35,193 nt of DNA, from positions 1 to 35,193 of IMG/VR virus record IMGVR_UViG_2737471821_000012; one strand, 5' to 3'. A model generated the notes under the pieces. The model searched no databases, was not told the DNA's origin, and saw only the letters and a list, made by a program, of their open reading frames with translations. This document shows positions 1-29,876 of this stretch, piece by piece. Both the position numbers and the translations under genes were made by a program. The stretch's first letter is position 1. The number at the start of each line of letters is the position of its first letter. Source of the stretch: a virus. Its lineage: Duplodnaviria; Heunggongvirae; Uroviricota; Caudoviricetes.

Positions 1-978
1 CCAGTCGTTTATAGTATAGAAGTTCGCCACCACGCCATTGATGAAACGACAATTATGGGTTCTTCCTAGGTGAACATATTGAATTCGGCAAGCATAGTTG
101 GCGATGTTGTTCCCATCAACTGTAACGTGAGAGATAGATGTGCTACGTCTTATAGAGTCAGTTTCGTAGTACATGTTGACAACTGTCTCTCCAGTGAACC
201 CACTCCCCGCAATAATGAATGACTTCTCAACGCCATCCCCGAATAGGTCAACAGTGCCTATTGTTAAATCAACTGGTGACTTAACATAGTAAGTTCCTGC
301 AGGGACAAACAGCCTCTTTCCTGCCGATAAAGCAACTGCTGCAGCAGCATTAAAGCTAGCTGAGTTATCTGCCGCTGGATCACCAGTAATGGAGAAAAAT
401 TGAGCAACAGAAATATAATCTGCTACCGTCACTTCGTACCATGGCAAAGCAGGAGATGACGGAAGAGTGCCACTACCACCGGTGTAGATTTTATTATTAT
501 ACCACCACCAGTTATCAACATTAGATAACACCCCCTCCTGCCACACCCCCCCTAACGAGAAATCAAGACCGTAAGAAGTAGCTATCTGACTTAATGATAA
601 TGTTGCTCCTCTGTCAGAAGCTAATTCTTGCCTTAATTGGTCAGGGTCATACTTCAGCACATTAGGAAAATAGAACTGCTGTGCACCATACGCATCATAA
701 ACAGCCATAGAATGGCCTTGCACAGTTACGAACTTGGCAATCTGTCCGTTATATACCGGATATCCAGCAGCGTTAATGATGATTGGTTGCGAAACAGGAA
801 CGTGAGAGCCGTCTTCATTCTCTACATAAACCTGAATCTGGTTTTCAGGATTTACCGGGTCAGTGTCAATTTTACCGATATAAATTTTGCCATTGGCTAC
901 GGCTTTAAAAGAACGAGCCATAGTGAAGAGTTGCGAAGGCATGCTCACTACAACATTGGCATTTATTGAATCTGTCAT
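1..978 (-). CDS. Tailspike protein, P22 gp9-like N-terminal head-binding domain; 3' end lies beyond the window
   Basis: Reverse-strand ATG at 978 with GGAG upstream; my translation begins [47 protein letters not shown], which closely matches the P22 tailspike N-terminus as I recall it; frame stays open to position 1. Not in the ORF track because the stop is outside the window. Confidence 0.85.
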
Positions 979-1037
979 TTTAATTTGCTCCAGATACAAG
1001 GAATCGCCGCAGCATGGCTACGGTGAATTTTGGGCAT

Positions 1038-1060
1038 AAAAAACCCAGCCGAAGCTGGGT
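1038..1060 (-). terminator. Rho-independent terminator downstream of ant
   Basis: Minus strand reads ACCCAGC-TTCG-GCTGGGT followed by TTTTTT, between the ant stop and the tailspike start. Confidence 0.55.
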
Positions 1061-1078
1061 CGTTGCGTTGGTTATCTG

Positions 1079-1981
1079 TCAGTAGTTATGTACTGAAGGA
1101 GGTAATTCTTTATTCTTAAGTCTCATCCATGCGGAAAGATTCGTTGGTCCGTCTGGCTCATTAATATCAACATCTCGTGTGTGGTTTATTAAAACGTCTC
1201 TCGCCATCCCGATAACATACGAAAACTCATGACCGTAGTCGTAGCATCTGCCGGAATAGTTAGATTGAATTTGTTTTAATGCCGGATACAGTTCGCGGAA
1301 TAATGCCTGTGAGCGGTTGGCATAATCCCATAACCATACAAGGCTGTTTGCTTCTTTTGCAGAAAGCTCGTTGGTTTTCCTCTCTTGTTTACCGATGAAC
1401 TCACCTTCAAGCACTACCCTGTGGATGTACTCTACAGCTTGCGGTATCTGAGATGCATCAAGCTCTTCAATACTTTCCACATTGAAACGCTGATGAATCA
1501 TTGCATAAGCTTCTGGGTACATTAGATGCTTTTTGCTGACTAGCATATTTACAGCATCACGAAGTGGAGTCCTGTCATCAACAGATGTTTTCTTACGTGC
1601 ATTTTCTGCCTTTCCCTTTGTCCAGTAGTCATGCAGCACAGTAAAGCATTCCTCCTGGTACTGAATCAGTTTATCACGGATGTCAGCACGAACTTTCTCA
1701 GGGTTGATGCTGAACAGCCATCCATTTAACTTCTTCAAAGGAAGGCAGAGTAGCTTACGAAGCTTCCCATCAGCGGCAACCATGTTCATATGAACACAGT
1801 TGAATTTGCTAATCTGCTTCATGAGTTTTGTTTGCTGCGTTGACCAGCTCATTCCAAGGTTTTGAACGATTGGCTTCATCGCAACATATGCAACTCCGGC
1901 AGCCATAGCGGTGATAATTTGCTGACCGTTGAATGGTACGTAAGAGGTGTTCACTGCTTCTAAAATTGCTATACTATTCAT
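1079..1981 (-). CDS. ant: Antirepressor Ant (P22 immI type)
   Basis: ORF 1079..2047; likely true start is the internal ATG at 1981 ([21 protein letters not shown]...) preceded by GGAG, giving 300 aa; sits immediately downstream of arc as in P22 immI. Confidence 0.8.
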
Positions 1982-2549: not shown

Positions 2550-2795
2550 ATGGAGCAACAACAAGGGTCGCCATTATCATTGATAATTATGGTGATTTTT
2601 TTCGTTTTCATCTTTTTTATACCTGCTTTAAAAATATCCAAGAAAGCTGGTTTTGACTGGAAGATGGCGGTATGTTTAACAATCCCTGGATTCAACGTGG
2701 TTGCGTGGCTAGCACTTGCGTTCATGGATTGGCCAATTCATAAGTATCTACCAAAAGACATGAATGGGATCATGAGCAAAACTAAGGAGAGTTAA
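2550..2795 (+). CDS. Small membrane protein (two predicted TM helices), unknown function
   Basis: 81-aa ORF starting 3 nt after the mnt stop; two hydrophobic stretches (LSLIIMVIFFVFIFFIPAL and VVAWLALAFMDW); locally AT-rich. Confidence 0.6.
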   Translation: MEQQQGSPLSLIIMVIFFVFIFFIPALKISKKAGFDWKMAVCLTIPGFNVVAWLALAFMDWPIHKYLPKDMNGIMSKTKES

Positions 2796-2799
2796 CCAT

Positions 2800-3285
2800 A
2801 TGAAAAAATCACTGTTAATTATCCCGCTTCTGCTGGCTGGATGCGCAAAAGTAAGTGACTACCAAGCAAGTTGCGAACAACGCTATCAAAAGCTTAGCGA
2901 TATGGCTAATTGCCTTGATGCCAGCGTGAAGAACGACTCACGCATGGCATCAGCACCAACACCTAAGCTGTATGTCCTTGCTGCGAAGATGCTCGGACAA
3001 GGTGTCGATGAAGGAAAGATAAGTGACGCGCAGGCAAGACTTGAGCTTCAGAATCTTTATGTTCAATTACAAAGCCAAGAACAAGCCCAACAAATAGCGC
3101 AAAGCCAAGCATTCCAGCAGGCTTTATTGAATTATCAGGCTGTAAACACAATGCAAGCGATCGAGCAAAAAGCGAGGCAGCCTGTTATAACTCAACCTTA
3201 CCCAACGCGTGTTGACACCTATACAAACTGCAATTCAGGATTTGGAAATACCGTCACATGCAACAGTAGCAGCAACATTAGATAA
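2800..3285 (+). CDS. Predicted lipoprotein with Gln-rich helical region, unknown function
   Basis: 161 aa; N-terminus MKKSLLIIPLLLAGC has a lipobox (LAGC), with Ala after the lipidated Cys; Q-rich stretch QLQSQEQAQQIAQSQAFQQALL; four further Cys; tightly spaced after the 81-aa ORF. Confidence 0.65.
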   Translation: MKKSLLIIPLLLAGCAKVSDYQASCEQRYQKLSDMANCLDASVKNDSRMASAPTPKLYVLAAKMLGQGVDEGKISDAQARLELQNLYVQLQSQEQAQQIAQSQAFQQALLNYQAVNTMQAIEQKARQPVITQPYPTRVDTYTNCNSGFGNTVTCNSSSNIR

Positions 3286-7371: not shown

Positions 7372-7827
7372 CTATCTCCCGTGATTCAGGAAGTCGATTA
7401 GTTCTTCGCGTGTGGCGCTGTAAAAAGTCACGTCATCCACGCCTTTAAAGTATTTCTTGATGGTTCCTACACGATTAAGGCCAATCATTGCGCAGTAAAT
7501 CTGCCCGTGGCGGAATTTGCGTGCGGCGAACGATGTGACGCACTGAACGGTGGTGTTAGTCAGAATGTATCGCCAGAACGCCAGCCCGATTTCCTTGCTG
7601 AAGCCACGAACCTCTGGCAGGTACATGGCGTGGCAATCGAATGTCAGCGGCTGAATCTCCTGATAGTAAACAATGCCGCCAAACTGACCGTACACGTTAA
7701 CCTCAAAGTAACGGCATTCAGGCTTGTAGTCGTATCCATCACCGTTGTTGCTTCCGGCAATAATGTCAGGGTGATTTCCGACTGCTTCGATCAGGTCGAT
7801 GTTTCGCGTTGGTTTGAACTGAATCAT
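7372..7827 (-). CDS. Virion-associated protein in the P22 gp14 position, function unknown
   Basis: 151-aa ORF between the tail needle and gp7-like genes, packed tightly against both neighbours; assignment by position only. Confidence 0.45.
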   Translation of the reverse strand: MIQFKPTRNIDLIEAVGNHPDIIAGSNNGDGYDYKPECRYFEVNVYGQFGGIVYYQEIQPLTFDCHAMYLPEVRGFSKEIGLAFWRYILTNTTVQCVTSFAARKFRHGQIYCAMIGLNRVGTIKKYFKGVDDVTFYSATREELIDFLNHGR

Positions 7828-8675
7828 TACTGCTCCGCAATGATTTTGATGGTTGTGGCAGTAAACTCCGCCCCATTTGACTGAATAGTTAACGTACTGC
7901 CATTTGTGGCAAGAAAGCCGTCTTTATCCACGCTGAAGAACGTAGCTAACAGGATGTTGTCGGTTGTTGTCGCCGCATTACGACTGCTGACCAGTGTGTC
8001 AGGAACAGAGCCGGAAAAGGTTAGCTGCATTGACCTGTTTGCGGTTCCGCTGGGCCACGTCCCGACAATCGACAGCTTGAAGAACAGGGTTTTGTTCTCG
8101 TTGAACACAACCATCTTGTTGTTAACGGTGTCGAAGAATGGTGCCAACGAGCCGGATGACGGCGTGAGCGTTTTCAGCAGGCTAACAAGGTTGGTCGGCG
8201 CTGTCGGGATGGTTACTGATACGCCAGAGTAAACAACCTCTGACTTCTTGCGTGTGGTTGCATACTCCAGAGCATCAATGCGCGTTTCATGGTCTGAAAC
8301 CTGCGACTCCAGCGACTGAAGTCTGGTATCAAGCGACGCAATATCGCTTTCATTCTGAGTGATTCGTGTTTCATGTTCCTGAAGAGTTGATTCTGCCTGA
8401 CTGATTCGCTCCTCATGATTAACAAGCGTTGCTTCCGCAGCAGAAATTCGCTGCTCATGGTCAGCGAGAATCACATCCTGCTCATCGTTCCTGACTTGTG
8501 CGTCATAAGCGCCCTGTCCGGCCTCGTTGGCCTTGTTCGCCACGTTACCAACATCAGTACCCTGTGCGATAACGTACAGCAGATATGACTGCGAGAAGAT
8601 ATTGCGTGGAAGAACTGATGTATCGAGCCGCGTAGCCTGGACGATTACCGGCACATTGAGATTCGAATCAGCCAT
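7827..8675 (-). CDS. Tail needle protein (P22 gp26-like N-terminus with a C-terminal knob, Sf6 type)
   Basis: 282 aa; N-terminus [43 protein letters not shown] matches the P22 gp26 N-terminus as recalled; heptad-like middle; length matches the Sf6 needle. Confidence 0.8.
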
Positions 8676-10093
8676 TACTCAATCCTTATCTGGCAGCCAG
8701 AAAGAGTGACAGGTGACTTCGTGATAACGCGCAATTTGAAGCCAACATTTTTCCTGATGCGCCCTACTCGCTTCCACAAAACACGTTTGTCGTAAACGAA
8801 CGGTTCATTCTGCTCAATCATCTGCTCACGCCCGTAATTGATGCCGTCAGTGGTTGCAGAGAGGAACAGGCGGTCAGCGTACTGAGCTACGCCAGTGGAT
8901 GATTCCACCTCCAGATCGAAGCATCTGGCGTTATCCGCTTTGAACAACGGAGTAAACAGAAGGTGTTCCTGTTGCTTGTCGTACTGGCTGCTGATATCGA
9001 ATTGCAATTTCCCGGTCACGGACTCCAGCTTATCGCCGCACGTTATTTGATTGCCTTCGTAAATGAAGTCGATAGCGCGGTACACATCGTCATACAGGCC
9101 TGTTTTCAGTACACACCATTGCGGACCATTGGCACTTGAAGATGCGTCGTATACGAGGACATGGCGCGGAAGATGGATAATCAGCAACTCATGCGCATCA
9201 AATCGCAGCGATTCCATCACGCCATCAGCCAGTTCATCAGCAGTGTAGGAGCGGAGGATTTTCTCAATGCTCGCGCTGGCGATTGGTGACACCTGCCCGG
9301 AGCCGATGATATACACAGACGGCGCACCTGTTGCCGGATTGCTGATGAATGCATAGGAATCAGCAAACGGCGTTTTGCAGTAAGTTCCGGCGATGCCTTT
9401 TTGCACCATCAGCGATGGCTGTGCGACATACAAAGCAGCACCAACGGTGGTTGCGCCAGTCAGGGAGAAATATTCAATCGTCGATGAACCAAAGCAGACG
9501 ATGAAGTCTCGCCATGTTCCGATGCCGATGATGCCGTCAGGCTGCGATTCTGCGCGATATTGTGCGCTGTATCGGTCAGGATGTGATTCGTCTTCAAGGT
9601 CAGTGATAAACCATGAATCAGTGCCGTCTTTTGACCACGCATAACGCCCACGTAAACGCGTAATGTCGCGAACCGAACCTAAATCATACTGAGTGAATCC
9701 GCTGTCTGTAGGCCAGTTTGAGACTGTTTTAACCGTGCCATCATAGCGATACTCGACCAGTTGACCATTAACGCCTACCGCCTGAGATGTTCGACCATGC
9801 GCCATTGATACGCGACCACTTCCGGCAACATCACCGACCTCGCTTTCTCCTTTGTACAGCTTGCCGCCACACACACGATAGACAGCATTCTGCGCCATGT
9901 TGTACTCGACGCCGCGCGATACACCGTTCACATCAGAGCGTTTGGCAATGCCCGGGAATGAGCGAAGATATCCGCTGCTGTTCAGGATTTCTTTGGGGGT
10001 TGCCAACATATTCACTGGCAGATAGTCGATATAGTCGGCGTTTCGAAAGTCTTTGCCGACACCTTTCATAAGCGGAAGTTGCTGAATCGGCAT
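8675..10093 (-). CDS. Tail hub / tail accessory protein, P22 gp10-like
   Basis: 472 aa, the same length as P22 gp10, located between the gp4-like and needle genes. Confidence 0.75.
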
Positions 10094-10102
10094 TTATTCA
10101 CC

Positions 10103-10564
10103 TCACGTACTCGGATCATCTTTCTCGATGTAAAACCGATTCCACGTAAACGTGCTTTTGTTACCACTACCGCGAGGCATGTCATTTCTCCGCTCAAGTG
10201 GTGGTATTTTGGTTAAAGCGATACAGATTGTCTGATATGCACTGTCAGCAGCGGTAAGGAGAGCGTCTGACGGCTGAATGACGTTATCCATGCACACTTG
10301 CACAGCGAGTTTCAAAGCGACGCCATCATTTGCCCATGCAGGGATACCTGAATCATCGTCAGGTAACGGCATGATGCCGTTTTCTGTATCAGCAAACTGA
10401 TACCCAAGCTCGATACCTTTTGCCTGCCATGCTGCCATCATGTCTTCGAGGTCATTAATGGCATCTTCAATTGCCTGAGGGTCAGCATCTGTCAACGTGG
10501 CATTGGAATACAGCCCGGCTTTTCGTAAAGCCTTAAGAACGAGATCACCCTTCGTTTTCGCCAT
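10103..10564 (-). CDS. Head-to-tail adaptor, P22 gp4-like
   Basis: 153-aa ORF downstream of the coat gene and upstream of the gp10-like gene, as in P22. Confidence 0.7.
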   Translation of the reverse strand: MAKTKGDLVLKALRKAGLYSNATLTDADPQAIEDAINDLEDMMAAWQAKGIELGYQFADTENGIMPLPDDDSGIPAWANDGVALKLAVQVCMDNVIQPSDALLTAADSAYQTICIALTKIPPLERRNDMPRGSGNKSTFTWNRFYIEKDDPST

Positions 10565-10733
10565 CTTCTTCCGCCTTAGCCACTTTTTGCTTCGTTGCGG
10601 TTTCTTCAGGAGTTTTTACCCAGCCTTTTTTCAGGTGAGATTTAACTTCTTCGTCATCAACAATGATGTAATCGACAGCAAACTGACCACAGGTGATCAT
10701 GTTGCCCGGCTTATAGAGCATTGTTCGTGCCAT
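10545..10733 (-). CDS. Small hypothetical protein between coat and gp4-like genes
   Basis: ORF 10545..10769; probable start at the internal ATG at 10733 (MARTMLYKPG...) preceded by GGGAGAAG; 62 aa; overlaps the gp4-like start by 20 nt. Confidence 0.4.
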   Translation of the reverse strand: MARTMLYKPGNMITCGQFAVDYIIVDDEEVKSHLKKGWVKTPEETATKQKVAKAEEDGENEG

Positions 10734-10774
10734 TGTCTTCTCCCAATAAAAATGGGGCCGAAGCCCCACCTAAA

Positions 10775-27507: not shown

Positions 27508-27978
27508 ATGACAAAATCATGGAGCGTACCTTTTCCTGAATCAGAAACTGAACATGATGGAATGCCTGTTTTCTGGAGATTCCAGGCGACAGTTGAAGAA
27601 GATGGGATAAAAATATTCGCACTTCAATATATAGCTTTTCATCAGACAGAGCATTATGCATGGTTGGTTCCTGCGCATTGGATTGTTAATTTTAAACCAG
27701 CACCAAATCAGTGGTTACAGGAATGGAAACAAAGGAGAAATAGATATGCAATTAAGAAAGTAGCAAAAAATGCAGAAAGATCTTTTGCATTCCCAACGAA
27801 GAAACTTGCCATTGAGAGTTTATTGCGCCGGAAGAAATACCATTTAATGAGAATCAAACAAGATTTGGCTGTTGTATCAACTCTTGTTGATGGGATGAAG
27901 AATATTGATACATCAACACCAGATATTGAATATAACTTTGGACACAACCAAGAAACAGAAAATTGGGTATTCTACTAG
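27508..27978 (+). CDS. Hypothetical protein, AT-rich cargo gene immediately downstream of N
   Basis: 156-aa ORF 8 nt after the N stop; visibly AT-rich compared with flanking phage genes; followed by a terminator-like hairpin. Confidence 0.5.
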   Translation: MTKSWSVPFPESETEHDGMPVFWRFQATVEEDGIKIFALQYIAFHQTEHYAWLVPAHWIVNFKPAPNQWLQEWKQRRNRYAIKKVAKNAERSFAFPTKKLAIESLLRRKKYHLMRIKQDLAVVSTLVDGMKNIDTSTPDIEYNFGHNQETENWVFY

Positions 27979-27980
27979 GC

Positions 27981-28007
27981 CGCATAGTCGGCCTTTATTT
28001 TTGGCAT
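27981..28007 (+). terminator. Rho-independent terminator-like hairpin
   Basis: GGCCG-CATAGT-CGGCC followed by TTTATTTTTGG. Confidence 0.5.
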
Positions 28008-28024
28008 AAACAACAGAGGCTAAC

Positions 28025-28321
28025 ATGGAATTTAAAGGTACTGAAGGTAAGTGGGAAATAATGATGGATGGCGATGAGATTAAAATCATCCAGGCAGACT
28101 CACTTGAAAATGGCGCAGGCTGGCGTTCGTATATTGCAATCTGTGAGGAAGTTCAATGTATTGAAGATGCCAATCTAATAGCGGCAGCACCTGACCTTCT
28201 CGAAGCACTTCAGTTATTACTTAAGCAATCCAAAAATAGAACAACGACAACATATCCAGAATGGTATGGAGCTGTTAATAAAGGTCTTGCAGCAATCAGC
28301 AAGGCTCTGGGAGGTGAATGA
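28025..28321 (+). CDS. Hypothetical protein
   Basis: 98-aa ORF; its stop overlaps the next ORF start in an ATGA motif. Confidence 0.5.
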   Translation: MEFKGTEGKWEIMMDGDEIKIIQADSLENGAGWRSYIAICEEVQCIEDANLIAAAPDLLEALQLLLKQSKNRTTTTYPEWYGAVNKGLAAISKALGGE

Positions 28322-28530
28322 TGTGCGAGTTTTATGAAGCAGATATCAAACGCCCAGAAATGGCAAGTGATGCGACATTACGTGATTACTTCGCTGCTAA
28401 GGCTATGGCAGCAATAGTGCGCAGATGGGACGGACATTCCTTTGGCGGTGGACAGAATTCACCACAGTACAAAGAATTAGCAGATGATGCCTACTTTATT
28501 GCTGATGCCATGCTCAAAGCTCGCGAATAA
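28318..28530 (+). CDS. Hypothetical protein
   Basis: 70-aa ORF translationally coupled to the upstream 98-aa ORF (ATGA overlap at 28318-28321). Confidence 0.5.
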
Positions 28531-28626
28531 GCACTGTGTATTCATTCCAACGAGTGAATACACGGAGCAATGTCGCTCGTAACTAAACAGGAGCCGACTT
28601 GTTCTGATTATTGGAAATCTTCTTTG

Positions 28627-28872
28627 CCCTCCATCACCGCCCCCGGTATCCCGCTCATGCTGGCGAACCCAGACACGCAGAGTCTCCGGCGTACAGCCAA
28701 TCTTTGGAGCAATGGAACAAATTGTCGCCCATTGTGAGTCATATTCGCTCTGACTTTCCAGAACCATACGGACTGCCCGTTGACGGACTTCGGGGGAAAA
28801 ACGAGTATTTTTAGTCATCCTGTTTACCTCTTTCTCAGGAAGTTTAGTCTCCAGGATTCCCGGGGCGGTTCA
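28627..28872 (-). mobile_element. Truncated IS3-family element (IS629/IS1203-like): left terminal repeat plus the first ~64 codons of orfA
   Basis: Minus strand reads TGAACCGCCCCGGGAATCCTGGAGACTAAACTTCCTGAGAAAGAGGTAAACAGG ATG ACT AAA AAT ACT...; ORF 28477..28818 begins [23 protein letters not shown]...[14 protein letters not shown] as in IS3-family OrfA (recalled), then diverges into unrelated sequence. Confidence 0.75.
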
Positions 28873-28907
28873 TCCAGTGTGAGGGCAATTTTTTTGACGG
28901 AGGATAT

Positions 28908-29876
28908 ATGAGTGAAGTAACAGATTTAGTTGTTATTGAAAAAGCAAATGCAATGACTGTATTTCAGTCTGCCGACCAGATTGAAGAAATCCTTCAAAAG
29001 GTTGAACATGAAGTTATGTCCTTTGTGCCTGATATCACAACGGCAAAGGGCAGAAAGGAGATCGCTTCTCTGGCGTATAAAGTTGCGCAGACGAAAACAT
29101 ATCTCGATGGTCTTGGCAAAGACCTTGTTGCTGAACTGAAGGAAATTCCAAAGCTAATTGATGCCAACCGCAAGACAGTGCGTGATCGCCTTGATGAGCT
29201 GAAAGCCAAGGCACGCCAGCCTCTTACTGATTATGAGGAAGAACAGGCACGGATTAAAGCCGAAGAAGAAGCTAAGGCAGCAGCTGAAGCTCTCGCAAAG
29301 CAAATTGAGTCTGACCATGAAATAGCGATTTTGATGGATCGCGAATTTGACCGCCAAAGAGAAGAGGCAAGACTCAAAGCGGAGCAGGAAAAGCGAGAGC
29401 ATGAAGAACGCTTAAAAAGAGAAGCTGAAGAGAAAGCCAGAGCAGAAGCCGAAGCAAAGGCAAAAGCCCAAATTGAAGCAGCAGCAAGGCGAGAAGCAGA
29501 AGCTAAGGCCGCAGCGGAACGTGCAGAGCGTGAACGCATTGAAGCCGAGCAACGAGCACAGCGCGAAGCAAAAGAGGCAGCAGAACAAGCTGAAAGAGAA
29601 AAGCAGGCGGCAATTGAAGCAGAACGCCGAAAAGCACAGGAGGAGGCTGAACGAATCCGGCGCGAGGCTGAAGCAAAAGAGCAAGCCAGAATAGCAGAAG
29701 AAAAAAGAATCAAGGACGAAGAAGAGCACAGAGCAAAGGATAAAGATCACCGGAAAGAAGTAAATAACAAAATACTTGCTGACCTTATCAAGGTTGGCGC
29801 ATCAGAAGATGTTGCTAAAAATATCATAACAGCCATCGTAAAAGGCGAAGTATTCGCAACAAAAATAACCTACTAA
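28908..29876 (+). CDS. Highly charged coiled-coil protein (Glu/Ala/Lys/Arg-rich repeats), unknown function
   Basis: 322 aa; ordinary N-terminal ~100 aa, then ~170 aa of low-complexity EAKA/REAE repeats, then a short C-terminal domain; the repeats create several spurious overlapping ORFs on both strands. Confidence 0.65.
   Translation: MSEVTDLVVIEKANAMTVFQSADQIEEILQKVEHEVMSFVPDITTAKGRKEIASLAYKVAQTKTYLDGLGKDLVAELKEIPKLIDANRKTVRDRLDELKAKARQPLTDYEEEQARIKAEEEAKAAAEALAKQIESDHEIAILMDREFDRQREEARLKAEQEKREHEERLKREAEEKARAEAEAKAKAQIEAAARREAEAKAAAERAERERIEAEQRAQREAKEAAEQAEREKQAAIEAERRKAQEEAERIRREAEAKEQARIAEEKRIKDEEEHRAKDKDHRKEVNNKILADLIKVGASEDVAKNIITAIVKGEVFATKITY

Follow-up and report, generated by a model that had tools for sequence, protein, structure and literature searches.

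We analyzed a window of 35,193 nucleotides (nt), that is, the whole of IMG/VR virus record IMGVR_UViG_2737471821_000012 (Caudoviricetes), with a focus on the open reading frame (ORF) that runs off its position 1. With moderate confidence, we propose that the product of this ORF is the N-terminal half of the sole tailspike of an Sf6/HK620-type, Lederbergvirus-like Escherichia coli prophage integrated at argW, and that the protein is an O141-specific O-antigen depolymerase spike. The ORF lies on the minus strand, starts with an ATG at 978-976 and stays open for 326 codons down to position 1; hence the window edge truncates the tailspike gene. The features of the gene within the window are as follows.

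1..978, minus strand: tailspike gene, 5' 326 codons (from translation)
987..990, minus strand: Shine-Dalgarno-like GGAG, 8 nt 5' of the tailspike ATG (read from the sequence)
637..978, minus strand: head-binding (tail-hub docking) domain, residues 1-114 (Pfam PF09008; identity to Sf6 and P22)
424..636, minus strand: conserved junction module, residues ~115-185, with a consensus that begins LRxELAS..GAx (alignment of 21 spikes)
1..423, minus strand: first rungs of the right-handed parallel beta-helix receptor domain, residues 186-326

The full gene, whose recovery an earlier note on this DNA had proposed as a check, was obtained and has 665 codons, with 339 of them beyond window position 1. When 1,100 nt around the ORF start were used as a query, full-length matches were found in 6 of 5,426 complete E. 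coli genomes. The homologue in E. coli O141:H4 strain P13-6 (1,998 nt, 665 residues) carries the annotation "phage tailspike protein"; its sole difference to the window fragment is S196P. A protein of the same 90% cluster, P0190, is identical to the window in its first 326 residues; its gene lies at 10001-11998 of locus L013 (contig ACBXHL010000004.1, GCA_054243855.1), which shows a single mismatch to the window in 10,978 nt. In L013 the spike gene is directly followed by an intact 385-residue integrase gene and then by yfdC, mlaA, and yfdF, an order that identifies argW as the attachment site. Codon 196 (window position 393), right at the start of the beta-helix, specifies Ser in the window and in L013; the other seven copies compared, as well as P0007-P0009 and P0186, have Pro there.

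The N-terminal part is a typical P22-type tailspike head-binding domain of about 110 residues, as the earlier note had it. Residues 4-114 match positions 3-113 of the 113-position PF09008 (Head_binding) profile with E = 2e-66. A PDB search returned P22, Sf6, and CUS-3-type matches for this domain, the best being Sf6 gp14 (7sg7), aligned over residues 1-124; P22 tailspike chains (2xc1, 8tvr, 2vky) align solely over residues ~2-121. Counted identity is 104/113 (92%) with Sf6 and 84/114 (74%) with P22, and by sequence the domain is nearer to Sf6 and HK620 than to P22.

The remainder of the protein is unrelated in sequence to the P22 receptor-binding part (gp9 residues ~125-666), which agrees with the earlier expectation that the part after the anchor would not resemble the P22 endorhamnosidase. 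No P22 chain in the PDB could be aligned past residue 121, and the C-terminal 545 residues (121-665) had no PDB sequence match below E = 0.27, so that full-length comparison, which could have uncovered a P22-like receptor domain, uncovered none. No NCBIfam model was found for these 545 residues. Against Pfam (E up to 1), the full protein matched only PF09008, PF12708, and one further family at a sub-threshold level ascribed to chance. PF12708 (pectate-lyase-like) covers residues 194-296 with E = 1.2e-9, above the family cut-off. A hairpin with the sequence WWWYNNK gave an SH3-like match (2yt6, E = 0.12-0.27) that we took as chance.

Structure prediction, another check suggested at the outset, gave the same fold class in two AlphaFold models: residues ~190-430 form a right-handed parallel beta-helix, as in pectin-lyase-fold proteins, with a predicted local distance difference test score (pLDDT) of 70-88, and a beta-rich C-terminal domain of lower confidence follows. 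Both this fold and the first rungs of the Sf6 beta-helix, which residues 188-294 match marginally (22 bits, i-Evalue 8e-4), could be taken to mean that the receptor domain is a strongly diverged P22-like endorhamnosidase, since that enzyme is a right-handed beta-helix as well. Similarity to the Sf6 endorhamnosidase is, however, confined to this weak alignment and does not extend across the beta-helix, and the P22 spike is outside the top matches for the modeled beta-helix and C-terminal part. We regard this explanation as effectively refuted.

In an alignment of the receptor-domain family, two motifs are invariant, CD386-x-E388 and Y-x-G-E411. They are ~25 residues apart, close to the strand spacing of the model, which makes D386, E388, and E411 plausible candidate catalytic residues.

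The earlier note had treated the ~215 visible residues after the anchor as one foreign part. That this part is foreign to P22 holds; its unity does not, as residues 115-185 constitute a separate module and only residues 186-326 are the first beta-helix rungs. The junction module has many invariant columns in 21 spikes that differ in their anchors and C-terminal domains. On its N-terminal side it is joined to P22 head-binding, TSP1/gp66-type (PF18668), T7-fibre-type (PF03906), or unrecognized domains, and on its C-terminal side to at least two unrelated families. No Pfam family was found for it. Its profile matches one solved structure, the K64-1 S2-4 depolymerase (9k4a residues 48-98, E = 1.7e-6).

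Nucleotide comparisons show exchange on both flanks of the module. In blastn, a second spike, of the type present in ETEC4073, is 92.5% identical to ORF nt 1-521 (residues 1-174) and then diverges totally; at the protein level, the next high-scoring segment pair past the shared N-terminal part has E = 0.78. Conversely, a gene for a 763-residue protein of ETEC4090, from a different kind of prophage and with a T7-fibre-like N terminus (weak Pfam match), is 97.4% identical to ORF nt 366-978 and 99.9% identical to the distal 1,431 nt of the full gene. In many further spikes of E. coli and of phages, HK620 and CUS-3 among them, the match to the 1,100-nt query ends after its first ~470-480 nt, which correspond to ~350 nt of the ORF. 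The boundaries at ORF nt 521 and nt 366 thus mark exchange points on either side of the module. The modular swap put forward earlier is therefore directly visible: the same anchor and module occur with an unrelated C terminus, and the same module and receptor domain occur behind a T7-fibre-like N terminus.

Since conservation of the module extends over at least four kinds of anchor and at least two unrelated receptor families, with exchange points on both flanks, it may, tentatively, be a portable recombination cassette, i.e., a homology hinge at which enterobacterial phages, both temperate and virulent, would trade receptor domains. Under this proposal, the E. coli spikes that contain the module all track O141 hosts. 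A 2023 survey of E. coli spikes described such conserved motifs for lytic genera and not for Lederbergviruses.

The receptor domain is rare. Seven of the 5,426 complete E. coli genomes have it, at ten places in total. The eight copies inspected are all intact, with no more than ten codon differences in 480 codons despite differing prophage backbones. An exhaustive search of 1.84 billion representative proteins gave only four clusters at E < 1e-30; ~150 weak matches are confined to the generic first rungs of helices of the PF12708 type. At full length, its relatives are one metagenomic protein with 57% identity and some eight clusters with ~30%, the latter from E. fergusonii, Enterobacter, and metagenomes.

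To the earlier suggestion that the swap bears on host serotype, the carriers add a statistical link to one O-antigen, with specificity inferred from association. The wzx/wzy cluster of O141 is present in strain ST12468 together with dTDP-rhamnose and GDP-mannose genes, and the ST12468 wzy was found in 14 of the 5,426 complete genomes (two of the 14 are assemblies of one strain). Five of the seven receptor-domain carriers have it, with a hypergeometric P of 1e-12, or ~1e-7 when the carriers are collapsed to 3/5 lineages. For all seven, the serogroup gene and the location of the domain are listed here.

P13-6: O141 wzy present; bioA/ybhB
ETEC1716: O141 wzy present
ST12468: O141 wzy present; sbcB-dacD
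VG48B2: O141 wzy present; argW
ETEC4090: O141 wzy present; non-P22-type prophage near yfgI
UMNF18: O141 wzy absent; two copies, at bioA/ybhB and argW (L003:5123-7117 and L010:3437-5431)
ET245: O141 wzy absent, different O-antigen cluster; two copies, the one inspected at argW (L011:3437-5431)

At least four different integration contexts are represented among the carriers, and in one copy the anchor is T7-fibre-like. The spikes of Lederbergvirus prophages are known to track the O-antigen of their hosts (PMC10408124), a rule by which the O141 association can be read as specificity; the coverage of E. coli spike specificities in that survey leaves O141 out. The O141 repeat unit has been described as having "a branched three-residue backbone" (PMC11267873).

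Several points weigh against an O141-specific depolymerase. The P value for five of seven is optimistic because the carrier genomes are not phylogenetically independent. The link is drawn from the hosts of other carriers and not from the window's own host. The receptor domain occurs in no deposited phage: a tblastn search of 50,697 phage records gave one marginal match only (27% identity, E = 9e-4), and hence no isolated phage offers a known host range from which to draw inferences. Overall model confidence is low, with a mean pLDDT of 58.1; a second model, built from an alignment limited to true receptor-domain homologues, brought no gain (57.5), and the first one was used. Further, the fold alone cannot separate a hydrolase from a lyase, an epimerase, or a binding-only protein. 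The beta-helix could accordingly be something other than a glycosidase, namely a binding-only spike, an esterase/deacetylase, or a uronic-acid lyase. We consider this quite improbable, as the two invariant motifs resemble an acidic catalytic pair, and the characterized P22-family spikes (P22, Sf6, and HK620) are endoglycosidases.

The remaining points concern the two carriers of the seven that are not O141. UMNF18 is reported to belong to serogroup O147 (PMC4551483), and the O-antigen cluster of ET245 contains L-FucNAc-pathway and pyruvyl-transferase genes. Each of these strains has two prophages with the receptor domain, at different attachment sites. The true target might then be a glycan other than the O141 repeat, such as a structure shared by O141, O147, and ET245, a capsule or colanic acid, or a prophage-modified O-antigen, with the O141 enrichment reflecting ancestry or ecology (e.g., porcine enterotoxigenic E. 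coli [ETEC] lineages). Several carriers are indeed porcine ETEC; however, the O141 carriers also include one human blood isolate and one isolate from a farm environment, with different integration sites. PHROG 8280 ("colanic acid degradation activity") matches residues 2-296, but the match spans only positions 1-253 of the 632-position profile and is mostly anchor. An acyltransferase gene just past the prophage integrase in P13-6 would fit a modified O-antigen. As to the two exceptions themselves, ET245 has a match to the tailspike query whose chromosomal coordinate is almost that of the sbcB-dacD prophage in the O141 strain ST12468; IS1 flanks the ET245 O-antigen cluster, where it lies next to galF, and also disrupts wzzB. 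UMNF18 shares the bioA/ybhB site with P13-6. These features make it reasonable that O-antigen replacement after lysogeny may account for both strains. Overall, we judge a target other than O141 unlikely, though to a lesser degree than a beta-helix without glycosidase activity.

The acyltransferase-family gene of P13-6 lies, together with a hypothetical gene, between a degraded integrase and ybhB (L001:9591-11325), and the pair may be an O-antigen-modifying (serotype-converting) cassette. In the window's own prophage, as seen in L013, the integrase directly precedes yfdC, and no such acyltransferase gene is present.

If the protein is an O141 depolymerase spike, residues 1-114 would dock it, presumably as a trimer, on the gp4/gp10 hub encoded in the window, and the junction module (residues 115-185) would form a neck. 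Residues 186-665, over half of which lie outside the window, would fold into the beta-helix and then the beta-rich C-terminal domain. The groove of the beta-helix would bind and most likely cleave the O141 polysaccharide, with D386, E388, and E411 as possible active-site residues, and the tail needle would in this way be brought to the outer membrane.

The genes around the ORF are those expected next to a P22-type tailspike: ant and Arc-family genes are upstream, the integrase and argW/yfdC are downstream (in L013), and gp4, gp10, and gp26 are encoded in the window. The relevant features are listed below.

1042..1061, minus strand: intrinsic-terminator-like hairpin and T-run between ant and the tailspike gene (from the sequence)
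1079..1981, minus strand: antirepressor gene ant (immI region), directly upstream of the tailspike gene (PHROG 245, E = 1e-98)
7827-8675, minus strand: tail needle, gp26-like (PHROG 1030)
8675-10093, minus strand: gp10-like hub gene (Pfam Phage_stabilise, E = 1e-301)
10103-10564, minus strand: gp4-like hub gene (Pfam P22_Tail-4, E = 7e-41)

A terminator is annotated at the equivalent position between ant and the tailspike gene in HK620 and epsilon34, and a 300-residue Ant is annotated at homologous loci. Further along the window are P22-type ejection proteins, the tail needle, gp10, gp4, coat, scaffold, and portal proteins, and an Sf6-type terminase; beyond the structural genes come genes for lysis, Q, NinG, DnaB, a CI-like repressor, a Rad52-type recombinase, and SSB. 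With this set of virion, lysis, replication, and repressor genes, the window contains the greater part of a P22-like (Sf6/HK620-type) prophage, in which the ORF occupies the expected tailspike position.

Two other stretches of the window were noted. Between the immI Arc genes and a gp16-like ejection gene, positions 2550-3285 (plus strand) hold two small ORFs of 81 and 161 residues, which belong to PHROGs of unknown function and are without a Pfam match; the larger has a lipoprotein-like N terminus (MKKSLLIIPLLLAGC). In other prophages, superinfection exclusion protein A occupies this position. A moron-like stretch at 27508-29876, between the CI-type repressor and the recombination genes, holds ORFs of 156 and 322 residues of unknown function (PHROGs 1636 and 1376; no Pfam match) and, on the opposite strand, a 113-residue ORF with a transposase helix-turn-helix fragment.

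The spike is thus of a well-known kind, a modular P22-family tailspike, with an uncharacterized receptor domain. In other respects it is textbook tailspike domain shuffling, to which our analysis adds O141 as the probable target and a conserved junction module that non-P22 anchors share as well. O141 is a serogroup found in porcine F18 ETEC and in edema-disease strains. The protein is a concrete candidate for an O141-specific O-antigen depolymerase; possible uses of such an enzyme include serogroup detection, phage or tailocin engineering, and anti-virulence treatment.

Compared with known systems, the arrangement with ant directly upstream of the tailspike gene is that of P22, Sf6, and HK620. 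The tailspike gp9 of Salmonella phage P22 (2xc1, 8tvr) shares 74% identity in the head-binding domain over 114 residues, and the hub proteins gp4, gp10, and gp26 are P22-type here as well; past residue 121, in contrast, no similarity to gp9 is detectable, the host genus differs, and the glycan is probably different. The receptor domain is likewise unrelated in sequence to those of gp14 of Shigella phage Sf6 (7sg7/7ukj) and gp9 of coliphage HK620, save for the marginal Sf6 first-rung match, and Sf6 has a shorter linker (residues 124-160, versus residues 124-188 here, where the extra ~70-residue junction module is found). The S2-4 spike of Klebsiella phage K64-1 (9k4a), a jumbo phage that has many spikes, is capsule-specific (K1); neither its anchor nor its catalytic domain is related in sequence. 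The type B spikes (P0020-P0022) belong to E. coli prophages whose hosts are likewise O141; residues 1-146 are identical to those of P0022, with few differences up to ~180, whereas their C-terminal ~500 residues have no significant similarity (E = 0.78) and no Pfam domain. The uncharacterized spikes P0011-P0019 from E. fergusonii, Enterobacter hormaechei, and metagenomic contigs share the junction module and have a receptor domain homologous from end to end (57% identity for P0011, ~28-31% for the others). Their anchors differ, being of the PF18668 TSP1/gp66 type, the PF03906 T7-fibre type, PF09008, or of no recognized kind, and at ~30% sequence identity their specificity probably differs too.
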